Source of the DNA: a virus
Lineage: Duplodnaviria > Caudoviricetes
Strand: one strand, 5' to 3'
Virus record (IMG/VR): IMGVR_UViG_3300045591_000321
Location: 3 to 64,002 of that record
Length of the DNA stretch: 64,000 bases
Position numbers and translations under genes: made by a program. Numbering within the stretch: position 1 is the stretch's first letter; each line of letters opens with the position of its first letter. The notes beneath the pieces are model-generated. The model saw only the letters and a program-made list of their open reading frames with translations. It had not been told where the DNA came from and searched no databases. Shown one piece after another: positions 4,377 through 14,578 of this stretch.

Positions 4377-4530
4377 TCACCCGCCTGATGATGGCCCGGA
4401 GGGACCGGGCCGAAACGTCCGCGCAGCCAACGCGGGGAGCGTCGCGGGAACCCGTCGGCACAGGGGATCACACGCCGCCCCTTTCATTATATATTGTTCC
4501 TTGAAATGAGAATAATTTCGGAGGTGTGAA

Positions 4531-5569: not shown

Positions 5570-5977
5570 TTACCCGGCCATGTTATTGTTAATGCCCTCT
5601 GCGGGCGGGTTGGCAGTATCATCAGACGGAACTTCGGTCGACGGTTCCGCCATTTGTTCCATCTGCTTTTCTGATTCATAGGTATTGATCGCGTTTTGGA
5701 CGCCGGAAACCGGATCGCCGCTCGACAGGCCGGAAGCCATCCCAGCAATCAGAGGCGTTGCCCATTTTGAATGTTCGAAGCCGGATTTCCCTGCATATTG
5801 GACGGAATTCGCCACAACAACCATCGCGGCGCAATTCATCATTCCGACGGCGTTCTCCAGCCCCCGGAACCACCCGATCATGACAATAACGATGAAGGCT
5901 GCGCAGCCAAAATAAACAAGCGTCGTGACGATTTTATGCGTGCTTGTGCCTTTCGCCCAATCGCGGATCCGCTTCAT
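5570..5977 (-). CDS. Membrane protein of the lysis module
   Basis: Two hydrophobic segments; overlaps the endolysin stop. Confidence 0.6.
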   Translation of the reverse strand: MKRIRDWAKGTSTHKIVTTLVYFGCAAFIVIVMIGWFRGLENAVGMMNCAAMVVVANSVQYAGKSGFEHSKWATPLIAGMASGLSSGDPVSGVQNAINTYESEKQMEQMAEPSTEVPSDDTANPPAEGINNNMAG

Positions 5978-7035
5978 ACGACGGTCCCCACGCAAATGCG
6001 TGTAGACCCGCAGTAAAAACCGGCCTCTCCCCTGCCGACCGCCTTGAACTTTGTCAACCAGTAGACACCGCTCTTCAAGGGCTGTCCAACCTGCTGGAAA
6101 ACAGAGGTGGTGCCGCAGACAACAGGGAAATCCGTCTTAAACTGATAGATTTCTCCAACCTTTTTTGAGAGTGCGGTTGTGTCGCTGAACGGTTTCCTGA
6201 CTACGGCAACGCACACGCGCTTCCCATTCTCATAAAAGCCGACGCCCGTGGTTAACGCCTGAGCCTTGAACTTTGTGTAGTGGTATCCATCTGCTCCCAC
6301 CACGTGAGAAACCTGCGCAAAGGAGCTGTTCGCGCAGGAAAGCTGAGAGCCAGATTTGAACTGATATTCCATGCCAGGGCACACAGTGAGAGAAGCTGTG
6401 TCGCAGAAATTCGGGTTCACGCTTCCGGCACCAATTCTGGCGACCAGTGCCGGATTGTAGCAAACATCGAGGTCTATGTACTGCGAACCGTTGCCGGCAA
6501 GGACGCCTGTCGACGAATACTGCCAGATGTCACAGGCACCAGAATAGTTCACATGTTCCGGCGATTCTCCGGAGTACATGGCCAGCCAGAAGCCGAAGCC
6601 TTTGTTTCGGCAAAAGGCCACGTCGATTTCGTTGATCTGCCAGTTGCGGTTGCAGTAGAGATATGGCAGGTAACCCGCCGCCTTTATCAGGCTAAGGAAC
6701 GCACAGGCGATATCGGTTGTCTGACTTTTGCTTTGGGCGGCCAGCGCGGCGCACTCGGCATCGTAAGCAACAAAAAGCGGTGAGCTCCCAGCAATCTGAG
6801 AAAGCGCGAACTTGGCCTCCGCCTGCGCTCCGGAAATTGTGTTTGCCTCGGCGTAAGCATAAACCGCATATGGGATTTTGTTGGCCTTACAGGCTGCAAG
6901 ATTTGATTGGAATTTTGAATCCACAGACGTCCCGCAGGACACTCGAAGCACGGCAAATCCGCATTTGCCACTTGCCTTTAATTTTGCAAAATCAATATTT
7001 CCATTCCATTTTGACACATCGACTCCATACAACAT
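5974..7035 (-). CDS. Endolysin, GH25 muramidase with two C-terminal beta-rich repeats
   Basis: GVDVSKWNG, AYDAE, DIWQYSSTG, IDLD GH25 motifs. Confidence 0.92.
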   Translation of the reverse strand: MLYGVDVSKWNGNIDFAKLKASGKCGFAVLRVSCGTSVDSKFQSNLAACKANKIPYAVYAYAEANTISGAQAEAKFALSQIAGSSPLFVAYDAECAALAAQSKSQTTDIACAFLSLIKAAGYLPYLYCNRNWQINEIDVAFCRNKGFGFWLAMYSGESPEHVNYSGACDIWQYSSTGVLAGNGSQYIDLDVCYNPALVARIGAGSVNPNFCDTASLTVCPGMEYQFKSGSQLSCANSSFAQVSHVVGADGYHYTKFKAQALTTGVGFYENGKRVCVAVVRKPFSDTTALSKKVGEIYQFKTDFPVVCGTTSVFQQVGQPLKSGVYWLTKFKAVGRGEAGFYCGSTRICVGTVV

Positions 7036-7050
7036 AAAGATTCTCCTTCC

Positions 7051-7365
7051 TTAACCTCCGTGGTTGCGTTCGGCGTTCTGTTGAAGCAAATAGGCGTTCA
7101 AGGCGTCTGTAAAGTTATGGTAGTATTCAAGCGCATCGTCCGTCTTTCCGTTTGCGTGCCCGAGTTTTTGATTCTCGGCCGTTGCCTCGGAGAGATGGCC
7201 TATCGCCTGAATTCCACGAAACAGCAAAACGCTTTCCTTTTTGCGAAATTCTTCGCGGTTGTCCTGTTTCTGATCCATCTTGTCGATTTTCCGCAGAACC
7301 AGCCTACTGATGATTGTGCCGACTCCGAGCGCGCTGAATATGATGGTTAAAACCTGCACTATCAT
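7051..7365 (-). CDS. Small membrane/holin-like protein
   Basis: N-terminal TM (MIVQVLTIIFSALGVGTIISRL) upstream of the endolysin. Confidence 0.6.
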   Translation of the reverse strand: MIVQVLTIIFSALGVGTIISRLVLRKIDKMDQKQDNREEFRKKESVLLFRGIQAIGHLSEATAENQKLGHANGKTDDALEYYHNFTDALNAYLLQQNAERNHGG

Positions 7366-7492
7366 TTTTACACCTGCTTTTAGAAAATTTAGCCACCCAC
7401 TTTTGAGCGGCCACGCAGCCGGCTCGGTTTCACCCGTGCCAGTATCTGGTCTTGAATCACTGACTATTTCATGATTACCATCTCCAAACATG

Positions 7493-7539: not shown

Positions 7540-8889
7540 CTATTCGTCGCTCTCTTCATTACTGGTACTATTCCGTTGTAGGGAAAACCAACCCTCTGTC
7601 CATTCGGTTTCGGTGTACTCCCCGAAGATCCTTTTTCGAAGTGAATAGCTGTTGCAGTGTTTCAGCAGCGCCTCATAGGCGCTTATGGTCATTTTGGCCC
7701 GCTCCAGCGTGATTTCTCCGTTCCGGTAATCCTCCATCAATGCCCGCAGCTTCCGCCGCATTCGAAGGGCTGTACTCTTTCTCAACTTGACGTGGTTCGA
7801 CCATAGCCGGAACCCGCAAAATTCTATTCCCAAGCTGATCGGACGAATGCAGACCTTGTTGTTTAAGTCAAGCAGCAATCTTTCATTGATGAAGCGTTCC
7901 AGCGTCTCCTTCCACACCTTCAGCTGCTGCTTATCGTCTGATAGGATAATGACGTCGTCCATATAGCGAATGTAATACCTGATTCCAAGTTCCCTTTTCG
8001 CATACTGATCCAGGGGATTCAGGTTGAGATTGGCGAGCATTTGAGATGATAAGGAGCCGACTGGCATTCCCCGATCCGGGATGCGCTCGTTGCGCGGAAC
8101 TTCTTCCGGCCTCATTCCCGCCGGAAGCCCGAAATTGCGGTTGTTGTTGCATACCGTCGCCGCCATCCATGCCTGCACCTGCTTGTCGCTGACCTTTCGG
8201 TTGAACTCCCGCAATGCGACATCATGAGAAATCCGATAAAAGTACTTCGATATGTCCAACTTCAAATAATACCATTTGGGACCTTCCGGAGCATCCGGGA
8301 ATTCAATCCGTGACTTTCTGGCCACGGCCTGCAGATCGCCGATTGATATTTTTTCGGCCGTCGCATTCAGCAGGATTTCCCGAAATCCCGGATGAGTCCA
8401 AACTGACAGTTTGCCCTCGCCCCGAACACTCTGCCAGCCGGTTTCCGTCAAAGAATGAAAAACCGTGTTCATTGGGTAACACGGGACATTATTCGGTCTG
8501 TCCACCAGCTTCAGCCAATAATATAGCCTCTCTACCGCAGCTATTTGGCCCCTTCCGGGGATACATGCGTAGCTGTCAGAAATATAACCCGTCACAAATC
8601 GAGGGTTTAGTACCTGGTAGAAAGCCCACTGAATAACCCGATCCTCGAATGGCTGCGCCATAATCAGGCGGCACTTTGGCTCGTAAATATAAAATTCACG
8701 GTATGCGCCAGGTCGAAAATCACCAGACAGGAGCCGCTTCTGAATTCGGTGCAAATTGTCGATGAGATGTGCCGAAAACCTTAGGATTTCTTCTCGGTAC
8801 CGTTTGTCCCTTCTGGCATTGATGTACGCCCGGTGGATATTTTCGAAGCTTGCAATCTCTGAAAAAACGTTTTTTATTGTTTTTGGCAT
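7540..8889 (-). CDS. DGR reverse transcriptase with an internal HicA-like insertion
   Basis: EPKCRLI, FEDRVIQ, LKLDISKYF, GMPVGSLSSQMLAN (DGR-type SQ motif), YIRYMDD catalytic motif, GIEFCG; GAGGA RBS before the ATG at 8889. Confidence 0.96.
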   Translation of the reverse strand: MPKTIKNVFSEIASFENIHRAYINARRDKRYREEILRFSAHLIDNLHRIQKRLLSGDFRPGAYREFYIYEPKCRLIMAQPFEDRVIQWAFYQVLNPRFVTGYISDSYACIPGRGQIAAVERLYYWLKLVDRPNNVPCYPMNTVFHSLTETGWQSVRGEGKLSVWTHPGFREILLNATAEKISIGDLQAVARKSRIEFPDAPEGPKWYYLKLDISKYFYRISHDVALREFNRKVSDKQVQAWMAATVCNNNRNFGLPAGMRPEEVPRNERIPDRGMPVGSLSSQMLANLNLNPLDQYAKRELGIRYYIRYMDDVIILSDDKQQLKVWKETLERFINERLLLDLNNKVCIRPISLGIEFCGFRLWSNHVKLRKSTALRMRRKLRALMEDYRNGEITLERAKMTISAYEALLKHCNSYSLRKRIFGEYTETEWTEGWFSLQRNSTSNEESDE

Positions 8890-8899
8890 GAAATTCCTC

Positions 8900-9045
8900 A
8901 AAGAAGATTGCGCTTGGCGACTTTCACTCTGTTACTCGCAGCCTTCGCAATAGTTCATTTTTCTGCCTGTCGGCACGGAAACGAATTCCTTTATCCCCAG
9001 ACTCCGTGCGGCGTCCGTAGACGCGCGCCCCTGGTAATGGGGTAG
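8900..9045 (-). ncRNA. DGR spacer RNA segment 1 (downstream of TR1)
   Basis: Hairpin GCGTC-TACG-GACGC (9011-9024); motifs GATAAAGG..TTCC, AAAAATGAA and GC.AGTAAC..G.GAAAG.CGCC shared with spacers 2 and 3. Confidence 0.7.
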
Positions 9046-9156
9046 AGCGGCGCGGAAACCCACATCGAGATTAGTAAACGCGCGGGTGAAATTGAGGTTG
9101 AGGGCGAACACGCCAGCATTGGAATAGTTCCAGAAGGAACCACCGCGAAAAGGCAA
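9046..9156 (-). repeat. DGR template repeat TR1 (111 nt)
   Basis: Reads LPFRGGSFWNYSNAGVFALNLNFTRAFTNLDVGFRAA; matches the VR 5' part except at adenines. Confidence 0.92.
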
Positions 9157-9159
9157 AAC

Positions 9160-9316
9160 AAATTCGTTCCCATTTTGCAAAGGGGCGGCTTTCGCTTTCG
9201 TTACTTGCGGCCCCTTTACGGTTCATTTTTCACTTTAAAATCAAGTTTGGAAGCAGCTCCCTTTATCCTCAAGCTCTGTGTGGTGTCAATAGACACACAC
9301 CTCCGGCGTAAGGTAG
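9160..9316 (-). ncRNA. DGR spacer RNA segment 2 (downstream of TR2)
   Basis: Hairpin GTGTC-TATT-GACAC (9283-9296) and the same three motifs at equivalent spacing. Confidence 0.7.
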
Positions 9317-9427
9317 AGCGGCGCGGAAACCCACATTGACCCATGAGCCCGCGCGGGGATTGTTCAGATCAAGGGCGAACACGCCAGCATTCGCACCATT
9401 GAGAAAGGAACCACCGCGAAAAGGCAA
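9317..9427 (-). repeat. DGR template repeat TR2 (111 nt)
   Basis: Reads LPFRGGSFLNGANAGVFALDLNNPRAGSWVNVGFRAA; matches the VR 3' part except at adenines. Confidence 0.92.
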
Positions 9428-9429
9428 GC

Positions 9430-9600
9430 TATGAACTACTCCCGGATCTTCTCAAGTAATGCCATTTTTTGCGGGGTTCGCTTCGCTACTGCCGGCTTAT
9501 ATGGCACTTCATTTTTTTGCTTTTTGAAGCAAGGAAATAAGTCCCTTTAATCTCCGTTCCGTCCACTCGTTCGTAAACAAGCGGCTCTGACATGAGATAG
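9430..9600 (-). ncRNA. DGR spacer RNA segment 3 (downstream of TR3)
   Basis: Hairpin CCGCTTGTT-TACG-AACGAGTGG with G-U pairs (9563-9584) and the same three motifs. Confidence 0.68.
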
Positions 9601-9711
9601 AGCGGCGCGGAAACCCTCATCCCAGCTGGAATTCGCGCGGGAATCAGCAAAATAGAGGGCGAACACGCCAGCAGCCCCCGCATTGTTCCAGGAACCACCG
9701 CGAAAAGGCAA
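9601..9711 (-). repeat. DGR template repeat TR3 (111 nt)
   Basis: Reads LPFRGGSWNNAGAAGVFALYFADSRANSSWDEGFRAA; same adenine-free conserved blocks and same length as TR1, TR2 and VR. Confidence 0.88.
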
Positions 9712-9727
9712 GTATGACCTATTCCCA

Positions 9728-10246
9728 TCAGTCTTTAGAGATTTTCTTCTGACACGCATAGCACAGGGATTTTCCAAAATGCGCCGTGGAATAATCGCTG
9801 ATTCTCTTTGTTATAACGGTACCGCATTCCGAACAGAGATACTCCTTCCCGTCCGAATCAATCGTGCCTGACTTTTCTCGTTCAGATTTCAGCCATCCAC
9901 CCACCATTTGGCCAACCTCAATGATACAATTTGAAATATTCTCAAACTGTGGATCCTTCAAATACCCTAAATCATTCGCCCACTGAATATCCATCTTGAA
10001 AGCACCGATTTCAGTGTCCAATTGGCGCAAGGTGTCTTTTTTTGTATACTTTTTATTCGCAACAAAAACCAGCTTTTTGATAGAGTTGAATTCTTCCATC
10101 AGCGTCTGAACGATTACAAAGCGCTGCTCTTTACTCATTCTCCCAAGCACTGGCCAAAGATATAGGCCAAGGTCATACACCTTTTGTTGAATAAAAAGCT
10201 GCTCATATGATTTGCTGAAATGTCTATGATTGTTTTTTTCTGGCAT
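9728..10246 (-). CDS. avd: DGR accessory protein Avd (four-helix bundle) with a C-terminal C4 zinc finger; alternative start 10261
   Basis: FIQQKVYDL, ANKKYTKKDTLRQLDTEI, EVGQMVGGWLK Avd signature; lies between the target gene and the TRs. Confidence 0.9.
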   Translation of the reverse strand: MPEKNNHRHFSKSYEQLFIQQKVYDLGLYLWPVLGRMSKEQRFVIVQTLMEEFNSIKKLVFVANKKYTKKDTLRQLDTEIGAFKMDIQWANDLGYLKDPQFENISNCIIEVGQMVGGWLKSEREKSGTIDSDGKEYLCSECGTVITKRISDYSTAHFGKSLCYACQKKISKD

Positions 10247-10391: not shown

Positions 10392-10434
10392 CCCGCTTAC
10401 GCGGGAATACAGAAAAGTGGCGCTACCGCGCCAC
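10392..10434 (-). promoter_or_regulatory. Two DNA hairpins downstream of the VR (DGR homing cruciform)
   Basis: GTGGCGC-GGTA-GCGCCAC (10417-10434) and CCCGC-GTAA-GCGGG (10392-10405), 4-nt loops, just past the target stop codon. Confidence 0.8.
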
Positions 10435-10457: not shown

Positions 10458-11606
10458 TCACAGGTCGCAAAAAGCGGCGCGGAAACCCACATTGACCCAC
10501 GAGCCCGCGCGGGGATTGTCCAGATCAAGGGCGAACACGCCAGCATCGGAATAGTACCAGAAGGAACCACCGCGAAAAGGCAAGCGTTCTCCGTAATTTC
10601 TAATCCAGAAATAATCACCATTCAGACTGTTGTCAACAGGGAAAATTCCAAGATCTTTCAGAAGCTGCGGAACGGTTACACCTGAAGCTGCCGCCACACT
10701 CTCAAACGTTGCATTTAATTCTCCGTAATAATCATCAACGTTTCCACCTGTGTAAGCCGGTTTATCGTTCTTGATGTCCAACACCGGCGCACCAACGTAA
10801 TTGTCTGCCTGCGTTGCATTGCCGACAGCGGATCCGTTATATTTCAGCGTATTCGCAGCTCCCGGAAGTGCGAGGCTGCCATCCTGAAGGATTGCCCGCC
10901 ACAGGTTGCTATTTCTGCTCTCGTCAACCGCAGCAGCCGAATTATTATCCGGAATAATCTGAATTTCGCCGTTCATGAGCCGCAGCCCGGAAGTCCATTC
11001 CCATACATTCCCATTCAGATCACACACACCATCAGGCGTGCCATCGTGTCGCCACGATGCAGGACCTGAACCCGTAAGAGTCCGGCCCGTGTGGTGATAT
11101 CCCTGCGCATCGTGGTAATTGGCCATGTTATTCCAGTTGTTGGCGTCGATCCAGTCGTAAGACTGGACGCCATGCTCCCACGCATGATCGACATCGCGTC
11201 CGCAATAATTATTTCCGCGCGGGATCGTTCCGTTTGTCTTACACCAATGAGCCAGCAACATCCATTCCGAATTGGACAGCAGATGCCATCCCTTCCCTTT
11301 CGCTTCGCAGGCCGCTTTTGCCTGGTCGAAATTTATCCACGCCGCCGGGTCGCGTCCAGGCAAGCTGTAGGCCCGCCCGCCCTCAACAACGTTCTGATAC
11401 TTCGAAACATAGATGTAATCGACTTCCTTTCCGTTGACAATGAACGCCGAGCATGTCGTAGGCGGGCCTCCTGCAACAATATCGGACCAACGGCATTTCG
11501 GGATTTTTACCATAACACTGGGAAGCCCAAGATCATCCAAAATCAGGGTGTTTCTGCCGCCTGTGGCGGATTCCAAGGCAAAGCGTTCCCTATCGAATCT
11601 GCTCAT
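10458..11606 (-). CDS. DGR target: Mtd-like receptor-binding protein with FGE-sulfatase/C-type lectin fold
   Basis: SKYQ, INFDQAKAAC, WHLLSNSEW, DLNGNVWEW, RGGS...GFRAA motifs; follows the baseplate and tail-fibre genes. Confidence 0.92.
   Translation of the reverse strand: MSRFDRERFALESATGGRNTLILDDLGLPSVMVKIPKCRWSDIVAGGPPTTCSAFIVNGKEVDYIYVSKYQNVVEGGRAYSLPGRDPAAWINFDQAKAACEAKGKGWHLLSNSEWMLLAHWCKTNGTIPRGNNYCGRDVDHAWEHGVQSYDWIDANNWNNMANYHDAQGYHHTGRTLTGSGPASWRHDGTPDGVCDLNGNVWEWTSGLRLMNGEIQIIPDNNSAAAVDESRNSNLWRAILQDGSLALPGAANTLKYNGSAVGNATQADNYVGAPVLDIKNDKPAYTGGNVDDYYGELNATFESVAAASGVTVPQLLKDLGIFPVDNSLNGDYFWIRNYGERLPFRGGSFWYYSDAGVFALDLDNPRAGSWVNVGFRAAFCDL
10473..10583 (-). repeat. DGR variable repeat (VR, 111 nt), a TR1/TR2 chimera
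   Basis: Encodes LPFRGGSFWYYSDAGVFALDLDNPRAGSWVNVGFRAA at the target C-terminus and ends in the GC-rich element GGTTTCCGCGCCGCT. Confidence 0.95.
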
Positions 11607-11932: not shown

Positions 11933-12708
11933 GACTGCATTCCTCCTGATACAAAGTAATTGGCCTGAGCCGCCGTAGCAGAACCAGTGAACCCGATCTT
12001 GAATCCATTCAGTTGCTTGTCAAAGGCCTCCACTGCCTCTACGGAGCCGCTGGAGCTGATCACCTCGGCGTGAACCATATAATTCAAGTTCTTCCGGGGA
12101 GTAGCCAGCGTTACGGTCACAGCGGAATCATTGAAAGGATACTTTTTGCTGTTCGTCAAAGCCACAGTTCCCATCTCGACAATAAGATTCGCCAGCTGTT
12201 GCGTATGCTGGTCTACCAGCAACTCAACCGTATGGAACTGGCTGTAACGAACATACGCCGCCGGATCCACGGGAATGTCAACCGTGGAGGCATTGCCGAC
12301 ATCAACCGAGCCGAGATAATCCCTCACGGTTCCGGGTGCCTCAGTATTGGTGTAGATAATATCCGGCAACGTGGTCTGCCAAACCTGAAGAAGAATTCCA
12401 TTGTCGCTTGGATCGGGATCGGTGTCGCCAGTATAGCTTTTGGCATAGACTCCAATTTGGTACAGGCTGAACCGCTGCGTAACCGCAGCATTTATCAGCG
12501 TAAACCTCATTTTCGCCATTGCGCCGTCGGAGGAACTGTCCGTAATGGACATATCCATTGCATAATCCGTTAGCTGGGTCAGAGATTCCAAGTCACCGGT
12601 CGCGGCAGCTTTTCCGCAGACCGCTTTGGTAATCTTCAGCTTTTTGCCGTCTAGCCCCGCCAGCAGGGCCTGTCCCTGTCCTGTGACCGCAAAAGTCCAT
12701 CTGCTCAT
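11929..12708 (-). CDS. Tail-collar/tail-fibre protein
   Basis: N-terminal TGQGQALLA...ITKAVCG, INAAVT..FSLYQIGVYA pattern of tail-collar fibre domains. Confidence 0.7.
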   Translation of the reverse strand: MSRWTFAVTGQGQALLAGLDGKKLKITKAVCGKAAATGDLESLTQLTDYAMDMSITDSSSDGAMAKMRFTLINAAVTQRFSLYQIGVYAKSYTGDTDPDPSDNGILLQVWQTTLPDIIYTNTEAPGTVRDYLGSVDVGNASTVDIPVDPAAYVRYSQFHTVELLVDQHTQQLANLIVEMGTVALTNSKKYPFNDSAVTVTLATPRKNLNYMVHAEVISSSGSVEAVEAFDKQLNGFKIGFTGSATAAQANYFVSGGMQS

Positions 12709-13427
12709 GATATCGCCTCTTTCGTGTAATTGGTTGCGCTGCCGCCCTGCTGGGCGGTACCAGACAGCACCGTCTCGAATGTGCTGTTCATAGTTTCCTC
12801 TGAATGGCCCGTAATCGAGCCGCCGAACTTCAGGTGATATGCGGGAAGCACCGCATAATATCCGCTGTCCAGCGCTTCTGCTGAATAGTTGGTCATGGAC
12901 GCCACCACATTGGCCCGCACAGGCATCTTTTCTTCTACATATGTATCAAATATTAGGTGTGCCGGTTTCAACGCCTCAATCGCCGAATAGGCCATATTAA
13001 GGTTGCTCGGGTCAGCATCGGCATAAATAATAATCGTAAATTTGTTCTTCCCGGTACGCTCTTTAAGCTCACACGGACAACCTGTAATGGAAGACACCAT
13101 ATGCACGAGCTTGTACGGATTCGCTGGGCCACGTGTGCGAATAACGTTCAAGACATTTTGGCGGCGCTGTTCAATAGCGAGATTTTCGTTGCGGGTTACT
13201 CCGTAGGTGTCCTCCCAATAAGGGATGAGCCATGTTGCCGTCTGCGGCACGACCTGATTCAGCATTTCCTCGGAATATTTTTGTAAGTCGTCCCATTCTC
13301 GGCCTAAAACCTCGAAAATCCAGAGTGCGGTGTAGGCTTCCCCGTACACCGGCGACAATCGCTGAACAATGGCCTCCGCCTCTGGACTTTTCAGAATTGC
13401 CGCCATTTTTTCCGTCAGGATAGCCAT
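12705..13427 (-). CDS. Baseplate wedge protein (DUF2313/YmfQ/XkdU-like)
   Basis: PQTATWLIPYWE..YG, RRQNV, ALKPAHL motifs. Confidence 0.85.
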   Translation of the reverse strand: MAILTEKMAAILKSPEAEAIVQRLSPVYGEAYTALWIFEVLGREWDDLQKYSEEMLNQVVPQTATWLIPYWEDTYGVTRNENLAIEQRRQNVLNVIRTRGPANPYKLVHMVSSITGCPCELKERTGKNKFTIIIYADADPSNLNMAYSAIEALKPAHLIFDTYVEEKMPVRANVVASMTNYSAEALDSGYYAVLPAYHLKFGGSITGHSEETMNSTFETVLSGTAQQGGSATNYTKEAIS

Positions 13428-14578
13428 TACCCCACCTCCCCCGGCGTCAACGCGAGAGTATCAAGTACCGGGTATTGAGTCACCGTCAGCGGAATATTTG
13501 CGGTCGCATCGTTAATTTTGAGATCCTTGAAATCATCACACCCGCTCACTCCGGAAAGCAGCGCCGAAACATAGGTGTACTTCACCTCCGCTTTTTGGAG
13601 ATTGGCGTCCAAGTTTGCCCGGATGGACACAAAATAGTCCTTCAAGCTGCTTTGGAACGCCGCGACCACCGCGTCAAGAGTGGCCGTGCTGGCCAACTGG
13701 ATTACAGCGGATACCGATACCTGCACAATTTCCGGCGGCTGCACAAGGAGTAGAGCATTCGTCGGCGCTAAACGCAGATCGGGATCGTCCGGCTGCATGA
13801 TATAATCGTTGACGGCTTTGCATAAGTCGCTGGACGCCGGGGCTCCGTTGGCGTCCGTTAAAATAATTGTGACGAGTCCGGAATCATCTTTTGCCGAAAT
13901 AACTGTCGCGGTACCCGTTCCGGCAACCGACAGCGCCCACCTTTTATAATCGGATGGACTGCCGACGTATGACCGAATTTGATTTTGATTGTAATAAGCG
14001 ATTCGTGCCTGCAAGCTCTCGTCGCTTTCCTCGTCTGTTCCTCCGGAAAACGCCGCATTGTTGATAACCGCAGTTATCCCGGCAACCGAATCGCTGCCTT
14101 TTAGGACAATCGTTCCGGCTTGCACATTACCGACTGTGCCAGGTGTGGAACATGTAACAGAAATATCCACGGTGCCAGCAGCCGGGATTGTGGCGTCAGA
14201 CTGTGTCGTAAAATCCAGAGATTGAGCTCCGTTTACGCTGGTTGTCGAGAATACCGTTCCTATTGGGATAATAGTTCCGGCTGTCCCCGTCACTGTTACG
14301 CTTCCAGAGGACGGGACTGCTGCTTTGCGCGGCAGCGCTACATTCTCGGCATGATAATCAAGCCATTCTCCAGTGGAGTATTGAGGCAGTATCTGCCGCA
14401 TTGCCTGCACAAGCGTAAACTGCTTAAATCTGGATTCCTCTGATGCGAAGGGGCGTATACTGTCGCCGACATAGCTCCCGTCTGACGCATCAATATCCGG
14501 AGGAAATGATTCCTGCATGCGTTTTGAGATGGTATCCTGGTCCTCGACGAGAAAATCCGGGGCCTCAAAATCAGCCAA
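13427..14578 (-). CDS. Baseplate J-like protein (XkdT-like)
   Basis: GEWLDYHA, GTVGNVQAGTI, GGTDEESDESLQARI, GSPSDYKRWAL. Confidence 0.92.
   Translation of the reverse strand: MADFEAPDFLVEDQDTISKRMQESFPPDIDASDGSYVGDSIRPFASEESRFKQFTLVQAMRQILPQYSTGEWLDYHAENVALPRKAAVPSSGSVTVTGTAGTIIPIGTVFSTTSVNGAQSLDFTTQSDATIPAAGTVDISVTCSTPGTVGNVQAGTIVLKGSDSVAGITAVINNAAFSGGTDEESDESLQARIAYYNQNQIRSYVGSPSDYKRWALSVAGTGTATVISAKDDSGLVTIILTDANGAPASSDLCKAVNDYIMQPDDPDLRLAPTNALLLVQPPEIVQVSVSAVIQLASTATLDAVVAAFQSSLKDYFVSIRANLDANLQKAEVKYTYVSALLSGVSGCDDFKDLKINDATANIPLTVTQYPVLDTLALTPGEVG

Follow-up and report, generated by a model that had tools for sequence, protein, structure and literature searches.

The window analyzed here, a stretch of 64,000 nucleotides taken from an IMG/VR provirus record of 64,002 nt (IMGVR_UViG_3300045591_000321, positions 3 to 64,002), harbors a diversity-generating retroelement (DGR), in which three template repeats (TRs), each followed by its own spacer RNA, lie in tandem between the gene avd and the gene of the reverse transcriptase (RT), and in which a single variable repeat (VR) is located at the 3' end of the target gene. 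All DGR-relevant genes of the window are encoded on the minus strand, and they are therefore listed in the direction of transcription:

10458..11606, minus strand: DGR target gene, 382 aa, TaqVP-like, with a C-type-lectin/FGE fold (Pfam FGE-sulfatase, E 2e-6)
10473..10583, minus strand: VR, 111 nt, at the 3' end of the target gene, a chimera of TRc (nt 1-36) and TRb (nt 37-111)
10417..10434, minus strand: GC-rich hairpin GTGGCGC-GGTA-GCGCCAC downstream of the VR, with a 7-bp stem and a 4-nt loop
9728..10261, minus strand: avd, 177 aa, four-helix bundle plus C-terminal zinc ribbon (Pfam bAvd, PF22296)
9601..9711, minus strand: TRa of unit 1, adjoining avd, 11 adenines, 3 AAY codons, in frame, no stop
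9459..9600, minus strand: Sp-a, spacer RNA of unit 1 (RT-14 67.4 bits; our own covariance model of the spacer, R1, 131.9 bits)
9317..9427, minus strand: TRb of unit 2, 12 adenines, 5 AAY codons, donor of VR nt 37-111
9172..9316, minus strand: Sp-b, spacer RNA of unit 2 (RT-14 56.1 bits; R1 114.9 bits)
9046..9156, minus strand: TRc of unit 3, adjoining the RT gene, 14 adenines, 5 AAY codons, donor of VR nt 1-36
8905..9045, minus strand: Sp-c, spacer RNA of unit 3, reaching the RT start (RT-14 60.6 bits; R1 133 bits)
7540..8901, minus strand: DGR reverse transcriptase, 453 aa from TTG at 8901 (Pfam RVT_1, E 4e-16)

The interval between avd and the RT gene comprises 826 nt of non-coding DNA and contains all three TRs, which are co-oriented, 111 nt long each, and separated by 271 and 284 nt from start to start. 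Coordinates and periods had been given correctly in an earlier description of this stretch (hereafter the original prediction), and the shared adenine-free blocks quoted there are found on the minus strand. There are four of these invariant blocks with 64 nt in total and without any adenine, and in the 47 nt between them the TRs are only 28-40% identical. Any two TRs differ at 28-34 of the 111 positions, mostly at non-adenine ones, and, as had been claimed, have neither indels nor in-frame stops in the frame of the VR. Their translations are LPFRGGS-WNNAGA-AGVFAL-YFADS-RA-NSSWDE-GFRAA for TRa, LPFRGGS-FLNGAN-AGVFAL-DLNNP-RA-GSWVNV-GFRAA for TRb, and LPFRGGS-FWNYSN-AGVFAL-NLNFT-RA-FTNLDV-GFRAA for TRc. 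Since most of the differences between the TRs are non-adenine ones, DGR mutagenesis of one TR could not have yielded the others, and it is a fair description to regard the TRs as a library of alternative loop scaffolds that differ mostly where adenine mutagenesis cannot reach.

Compared with TRb, which is the best single TR, the VR shows 13 differences, nine of them non-adenine, and compared with TRc alone 22, of which 14 are non-adenine. Read as TRc (nt 1-36) followed by TRb (nt 37-111), however, the VR is left with four differences, all of them at template adenines and none at any other base. Three of these lead to the exchanges N to Y, N to D and N to D in AAY codons, and the fourth is silent (TCA to TCG). 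The nine non-adenine mismatches to TRb are all located in the 16-nt first variable segment, and each of them is equal to the TRc base. Therefore, drift cannot explain the VR, which on the basis of this alignment is a chimera of two templates. Only four copies of the repeat are present in the 64-kb provirus record, the three TRs and the VR, which agrees with the claim that the array serves one VR, and no other VR or remote target was found within the 64-kb provirus. A look-alike at 4438-4453, considered as a further VR or target, is weak, lacks any other block and is ascribed to chance. For the repeats themselves a chance origin is excluded, because a 17-nt block occurs in four exact copies versus 0.22 expected. 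The DGR region is 100% identical over 8,149 nt in the Logan contig SRR16377041 and 99.98% identical in the JGI contig 3300044556, both with exactly the same VR. A comparison with GenBank phage records gave no match to the locus. As these two further contigs are listed under other sample accessions, and as the units are positionally orthologous in related phages, the array is not an assembly artefact. Logan contigs are presumably built from 31-mers, which are longer than the 19-20 nt shared at the chimera junction; if this holds true, the junction was not created by the assembler but exists in actual molecules.

The repeated unit is not the TR alone, but the TR together with its own complete spacer RNA. 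The ~140 nt behind each TR have several motifs in common, namely CCAGA, a first hairpin, GAGGAUAAAGG, another hairpin, AAAAAAUGAA and, last, a closing stem domain, and the Rfam family RT-14 (RF02921) matches all three spacers over its full model length (1-144) with the scores listed above, the gathering score being 48.1 bits. For the structure, 18 units from eight loci were aligned and folded with RNAalifold, resulting in 29 pairs, 19 of which show compensatory changes. The cells of this alignment are paired in 93.6%, compared to 40-51% when the partners are slid by 1-3 columns, and none of 500 shuffles reaches the observed covariation. The first hairpin, for example, reads GGUGUGUGUC-UAUU-GACACCACAC in unit 2 and GGCGCGCGUC-UACG-GACGCCGCAC in unit 3, so that the sequence differs between the units while the pairing is kept. 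The motifs RT-1 to RT-19 have been described as RNAs near RT genes, and RT-10 among them is the TR-RT spacer of BPP-1 and its likely primer (Weinberg et al. 2017, PMC5737381). In BPP-1, the smallest template that supports cDNA synthesis spans the TR with 20 nt ahead of it and 140 nt of the spacer behind it, and the RT-Avd complex primes from A56 of the spacer, yielding 90-nt and 120-nt cDNAs from the 134-nt TR (Handa et al., PMC6182149). In the spacers of the window, CCUC just 3' of the TR is predicted to form a helix with GAGG before an invariant AUAAAGG (spacer positions ~48-58), and it is in this region that the priming adenosine might be expected. Most TRs, in contrast to the VR, are preceded at a distance of ~15 nt by a loosely conserved GGGARUAG...CAU motif, located at 9712-9727, 9428-9445 and 9157-9173 of the window (minus strand) and at equivalent sites in relatives; in BPP-1, cDNA synthesis needs 20 nt upstream of the TR (PMC6182149). 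A census of RT-14 in 150 Clostridia genomes gave a match in four only, with tandem copies in one of them (locus L190, see below), which is too sparse for any statement on prevalence.

The proteins and target-site signals of the locus are those of a DGR. In an alignment with the RT of a relative (L083; L-numbers are the labels of the relative loci that were fetched), the RT displays the motifs VGSLSSQ and YMDD, and the motif [I/V/L]GxxxSQ is diagnostic for DGR-type RTs. More than 200 RT relatives each adjoin a TR/VR pair. An alternative start of the RT at the ATG at 8889, as called on contigs L252 and L253, would result in 449 aa. The RT is ~50-95 aa longer than most of its relatives, with about 100 additional residues in the N-terminal half (residues ~77-190, window ~8330-8670), where they align poorly or not at all with the RT of L083 and have no Pfam name. 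Residues 23-126 of Avd match bAvd with an E-value of 5.4e-16, and a C-terminal extension of ~45 aa (window 9728-9850) forms a CxxC...CxxC zinc ribbon. In the RT clade of the window, to which most of the multi-TR arrays belong, this ribbon is conserved (window, L248, L001, L089, L093, L020 and L083); the remaining relatives lack it, the two-unit loci L190 and L092 among them. The AlphaFold model of the target protein (pLDDT 92.8) finds its best PDB match in 5VF4, the DGR variable protein of Thermus aquaticus, with a TM-score of 0.88-0.90 and 38-39% identity, and more weakly also matches TvpA, FGE and Mtd. The VR covers 37 codons and stops 12 nt short of the stop codon of the target gene. VR and TRs have the GC-rich block GGGTTTCCGCGCCGCT in common, beyond which the VR runs on as TTTTGCGACC, whereas all TRs run on as CTAYCYYA. 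Target hairpins of phage DGRs have a GC-rich stem of 7-10 bp and a 4-nt GRNA loop and are located 4-34 nt from the VR (Guo 2011, PMC3240598). We regard the hairpin at 10417-10434, whose loop GGTA fits GRNA, as the likely target-site hairpin or cruciform; its distance of 38 nt from the VR end is slightly above this published range. Thus, the locus contains an RT, a TR/VR pair, a target with a ligand-binding fold, an Avd and target-site signals, but departs from the canonical architecture of one TR per VR in that three TR-spacer units serve one VR. This departure defines the variant and does not take the locus out of the DGR family.

The target gene stands at the position of a tail fibre or receptor-binding protein gene, downstream of the genes of a baseplate J and a Mu gp48-like protein, and two further ORFs follow the RT gene:

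14578..13427, minus strand: baseplate J gene, upstream of the target gene
13427..12705, minus strand: gene of the Mu gp48-like protein, followed by two small ORFs before the target gene
7051-7491, minus strand: ORF of 146 aa directly downstream of the RT gene, without Pfam match
5974-7035, minus strand: GH25 lysin, downstream of the 146-aa ORF

The presence of the 146-aa ORF and the GH25 lysin downstream of the RT therefore places the DGR between the tail-fibre and the lysis module.

About 250 loci were collected by RT searches of viral, metagenome and genome collections and by look-ups of the target protein, and the spacer copies per locus were counted with the covariance model. Nearly all of these loci contain exactly one spacer, which lies directly upstream of the RT. 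Outside the window, more than one spacer is found in eight loci among the ~240 RT-relative loci that were fetched, and the search for other multi-TR loci, which the original prediction had proposed, thus revealed relatives with two to four TR-spacer units. Three spacers are present in L248, L001 and L089, whose RTs are 93, 81 and 61% identical to that of the window, respectively, and four in L093 (53%). L083 (38%) has three spacers, the first of which is truncated; L190, a Lachnospiraceae metagenome-assembled genome (MAG) with a different RT lineage, has two; L092 has two with a truncated first one, and L168, a Thermincola MAG, has one spacer plus a relic fused to avd. In a quick RT tree with SH-aLRT support, the window, L248, L001, L089, L093, L083 and the single-TR locus L020 form one clade with 99% support. 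Between the window, L248 and L001, spacers in the same position are 0.68-0.86 identical and those in different positions ~0.6. The spacers are therefore positionally orthologous, and the three-unit array predates these phages and was kept.

The VRs of the relatives show the same relationship to their arrays. The VR of L248 is derived from the whole middle TR (TR2) with eight adenine substitutions, that of L093 from TR3 of four with ten, and that of L092 from TR2 with seven, in all three cases without any other change. Two further VRs are chimeras. That of L001 corresponds to TR2 (1-32) and TR3 (33-111) with six adenine changes and one other, the best single TR leaving seven non-adenine mismatches, and that of L190 to TR2 (1-34) and TR1 (35-111) with six adenine changes and no other, the best single TR leaving six. 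Contigs with TR arrays identical to that of L001 carry VRs of four different parentages: TR2/TR3 in L001 itself, the whole TR3 in L255, TR3/TR1 with the native flank in L259 and L260, and the whole TR2 with eight adenine substitutions in L256-L258. The "VR" of L254, an unmutated TR1 with the flank of TR1, was set aside as a possible low-coverage misjoin. Furthermore, 40 assembled VR variants with the native C-terminal tail were taken from 90%-identity target-protein clusters of L001, L089, L093 and L083, and each VR residue was examined for whether it can be reached from the TR codon by adenine changes only, with the arrays of the other loci as controls. For 32 of the 40 variants, the own array fits with 0-1 exceptions, compared to 4-11 for foreign arrays. 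Every TR acts as donor in these four related arrays: TR1, TR2 and TR3 are used one, three and four times in the L001 type, five, three and four times in the L089 type, and three, ten and five times in the L083 type, and TR1 to TR4 are used two, five, five and five times in the L093 type. An impression from six loci that the unit next to avd is never a donor was overturned by these variants. Two-donor chimeras account for 15 of the 40 variants, and 13 of the 15 break after residue 10-13, in the AGVFAL block, as in the window. The VRs are therefore not derived from one TR only, nor do the TR copies of the relatives decay with indels, of which none was found; either outcome had been named in the original prediction as speaking against a multi-template DGR. 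Its central claim is borne out by the TRc/TRb chimera of the window, the TR2-derived VR of L248 and the four parentages in L001-type arrays.

From these data it is very probable that the locus represents a working multi-template DGR of a temperate tailed phage, in which three diverged tandem TR-spacer units feed one VR. According to the proposed mechanism, the RT-Avd complex would load on any of the three spacer RNAs and prime on that spacer. The adjoining TR would then be copied from its adenine-free 3' block toward the 5' end with misreading of adenines, and the resulting cDNA would take the place of the one VR in the tail-fibre gene. The shared GC-rich block and the downstream hairpin would determine the 3' junction, and the 5' junction would arise through homology within one of the adenine-free blocks that TRs and VR have in common. 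For 5' cDNA integration, at least 8 bp of TR/VR identity are needed, at least 19 bp are better, and internal sites are possible (PMC3240598). A full-length transfer would deliver the complete set of three loop segments of one TR, whereas resolution in the 18-nt middle block would replace only the 3' ~75 nt and turn the VR into a two-template chimera. The middle block would thus act as natural early exit, leaving 5' 32-36 nt from an earlier event, as in nearly all chimeras, and the VR of the window would have been derived from TRc at first, before a transfer from TRb replaced its 3' 75 nt. Diversity would then arise in three layers: the choice of the template, the combination of templates, and adenine mutagenesis. 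The data show the anatomy of the locus, the adenine-only relation of the VR segments to two different TRs, a conserved structured spacer behind every TR and donor use of every TR in related arrays, and we only infer the priming site, the co-transcription of the units, the order of events in the chimera and the use of TRa in this phage.

Several observations weigh against this reading. All three assemblies of this phage contain the same VR, and neither the window nor L248 offers an example of TRa as donor; donor use of the first unit is seen only for the equivalent unit in relatives and not for TRa in this phage. Some of the chimeras assembled from short reads could have arisen because the assembler linked co-existing variants across the 18-20-nt block, a caveat by which whole-VR assignments are unaffected, and likewise the chimera of the window if its Logan contig was built from 31-mers. 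The VR of L089 is close to TR3 but shows three non-adenine changes, and that of L083 fits poorly, with ten non-adenine differences. The truncated spacers in the first units of L083 and L092 and the relic in L168 demonstrate that units can decay. Moreover, a promoter scan predicted no promoter on the minus strand in this region, a result that is silent on separate transcription of the units.

The chimeras could also be made during cDNA synthesis, if the RT jumped between TRs of one transcript or of two at a shared block and the chimeric cDNA replaced the whole VR in one event. The identical 16-22-nt blocks in all TRs could re-anneal nascent cDNA, template switching has already been proposed for 5' integration by Guo 2011 (PMC3240598), the breakpoints cluster at one block, and the donor order has no fixed direction (TR3/TR2 in the window, TR2/TR3 in L001, TR2/TR1 in L190). 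Nothing in these data separates such a jump from sequential partial homing; yet the retained 5' part is always short (~32-36 nt), as an incomplete 3'-to-5' replacement predicts, and breaks in the other blocks, which would be equally possible for a jumping RT, are rare (2 of 15). We consider template jumping rather unlikely. An exchange independent of the RT, with the TRs as silent cassettes that recombine or undergo gene conversion at the blocks as in antigenic variation of the pilS/pilE type, and with the RT adding adenine mutations later from whichever TR fits, is improbable. Direct repeats with identical blocks of 16-22 nt do recombine, and an apparent VR x TR1 deletion is present in three assemblies (L256-L258), but the changes in every transferred segment are adenine-specific with hardly any exception, and the transfer is one-way, since the TRs stay adenine-rich and the VRs adenine-poor. 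In addition, the blocks are short for RecA-type exchange, and structural selection has preserved a complete priming spacer behind each TR, for which silent DNA cassettes would have no use.

One might further assume that a single TR still functions in this phage, next to duplicates in decay, and that the VR chimera dates from an older state of the array. TRa indeed has the fewest AAY codons (three) and an adenine in the region of the last shared block (GATGAGGG), no TRa-derived VR was seen in the own lineage of the window, and truncated units exist among the relatives. Nevertheless, the VR draws on two TRs with adenine-only changes, all three spacers score above the curated RT-14 threshold, stops and indels are absent from all TRs, the three units have orthologues at the same positions in phages with RT identities of 81-93%, and the counterparts of the first unit serve as donors in four related arrays, which makes this explanation very improbable.

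Within the arrays, identity amounts to 100% for the blocks, 51-92% for the spacers and 13-57% for the variable segments; stops and indels are again absent, and each TR has 2-8 AAY codons. In the four-unit array of L093 (4888-5982), the spacers of units 1 and 4 are 92% identical, but their variable segments only 48%; all four TRs have AACCTGAACAAC as their middle variable segment. Between the window and L001 the spacers are orthologous, whereas the TRs carry no positional signal. The variable segments of the TRs are renewed far faster than the flanking spacers, the blocks being constant within a locus. The first-unit spacers of L083 (9812-9928, 66.6 bits) and L092 (1235-1354, 38.8 bits) lack the 3' stem domain; TR1 of the L083 type is still a VR donor in cluster members despite its truncated spacer. 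L168 contains a partial spacer (5570-5690, 55.8 bits) upstream of its single TR, fused to the truncated 3' end of avd; this spacer is probably what is left of an upstream TR unit that was deleted. In L256 (5252-5541), L257 (3437-3726) and L258 (3237-3526), three assemblies from separate sample accessions, the last block joins an adenine-mutated VR of TR2 origin to spacer 1; avd and TR1 are deleted, and the target has 485 aa with a C-terminal extension of 27 aa. This looks like a product of VR x TR1 recombination and thus like a cost of direct repeats. The targets of L249-L251 are 69-75% identical to that of the window, but these loci have a single TR, an Avd of 98-123 aa without zinc ribbon, and an RT of 358-380 aa from a different lineage. 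Therefore, the tail-fibre gene and the DGR core have recombined between phages.

The locus resembles the DGR of BPP-1 in the gene order target-avd-TR-spacer-RT, in the adenine-specific differences between TR and VR that are concentrated in AAY codons, in the GC-rich adenine-free 3' end common to TR and VR with diverging flanks, in the GC-rich hairpin with GRNA loop downstream of the VR, in the structured spacer between TR and RT, and in the target, a phage receptor-binding protein with C-type-lectin fold. It differs from BPP-1, which has one TR-spacer unit, by three units that are all aimed at one VR, by the two-TR chimera in the VR, by a spacer of the RT-14 instead of the RT-10 type, by the zinc ribbon of Avd, and by adenine-poor TRs with 11-14 adenines per 111 nt compared to 23 upstream of the GC element in BPP-1. 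With TaqVP (5VF4), the target model superposes over the full length, a comparison that covers the target protein only. Untranslated in-frame cassettes that share conserved blocks, donate whole or partial segments to one expressed site and thereby generate mosaics, much as here, are found in pilS/pilE of Neisseria, vls of Borrelia and the avian immunoglobulin pseudo-V genes, and these systems use DNA recombination. The locus described here is probably not a member of those families; it shows the adenine-mutation signature of reverse transcription and an RT priming RNA for each cassette. In published DGRs with several TRs, every TR serves one or more VRs of its own, which are located in different places or genes (Yan et al. 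2019, PMC6642488; PMC12386605). The example in PMC12386605, the zeta crAss-like phages Lera/ct1yV3, likewise has more than one TR per RT, whereas here several TRs in a tandem TR-spacer array compete for and mix into one VR. RF02921 was described near RT genes without an assigned role (PMC5737381), and here it occurs in three tandem copies, each behind a TR. In the openly searchable full-text literature, with subscription journals outside the search, multi-TR DGRs were found only with an own VR per TR, and the large surveys PMC5758913, PMC8144416, PMC3521204, PMC10907252 and bioRxiv 10.1101/2024.11.15.621889, searched for these terms, mention neither tandem TR arrays for one VR nor mosaic VRs. 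Enzyme, chemistry and parts are those of a DGR; the novelty lies in a template module that is multiplied, with separate priming of each copy, and used combinatorially.

DGRs have been understood as one template with one mutational neighbourhood, in which only the residues of adenine codons vary and the scaffold is fixed. With several templates that are mixed at conserved blocks, fixed residues can change as well, which means much larger jumps in the receptor specificity of the tail fibre. The chimeras also mark the extent of cDNA replacement and thereby a partial 3'-to-5' conversion that is invisible in single-template DGRs; the question of 5' cDNA integration is therefore testable by sequencing alone. 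Measured against any single TR, such VRs do not pass the adenine-only mismatch test, so that loci of this kind can be missed or mis-scored by annotation pipelines. For DGR-based directed evolution, tandem TR-spacer units with common adenine-free crossover blocks may serve as a design hint. Finally, it is possible, although on the less likely side, that this clade of phage DGRs represents a combinatorial template bank, in which all units are active, block exchange is selected and the bank is renewed much faster than the spacers. Such a bank would offer up to 9-27 scaffold combinations in this phage before adenine mutagenesis, and it would be renewed possibly by block-guided exchange among the TRs or by back-transfer of VR segments. 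If this holds true, the array would be an evolving memory of useful receptor-binding designs.

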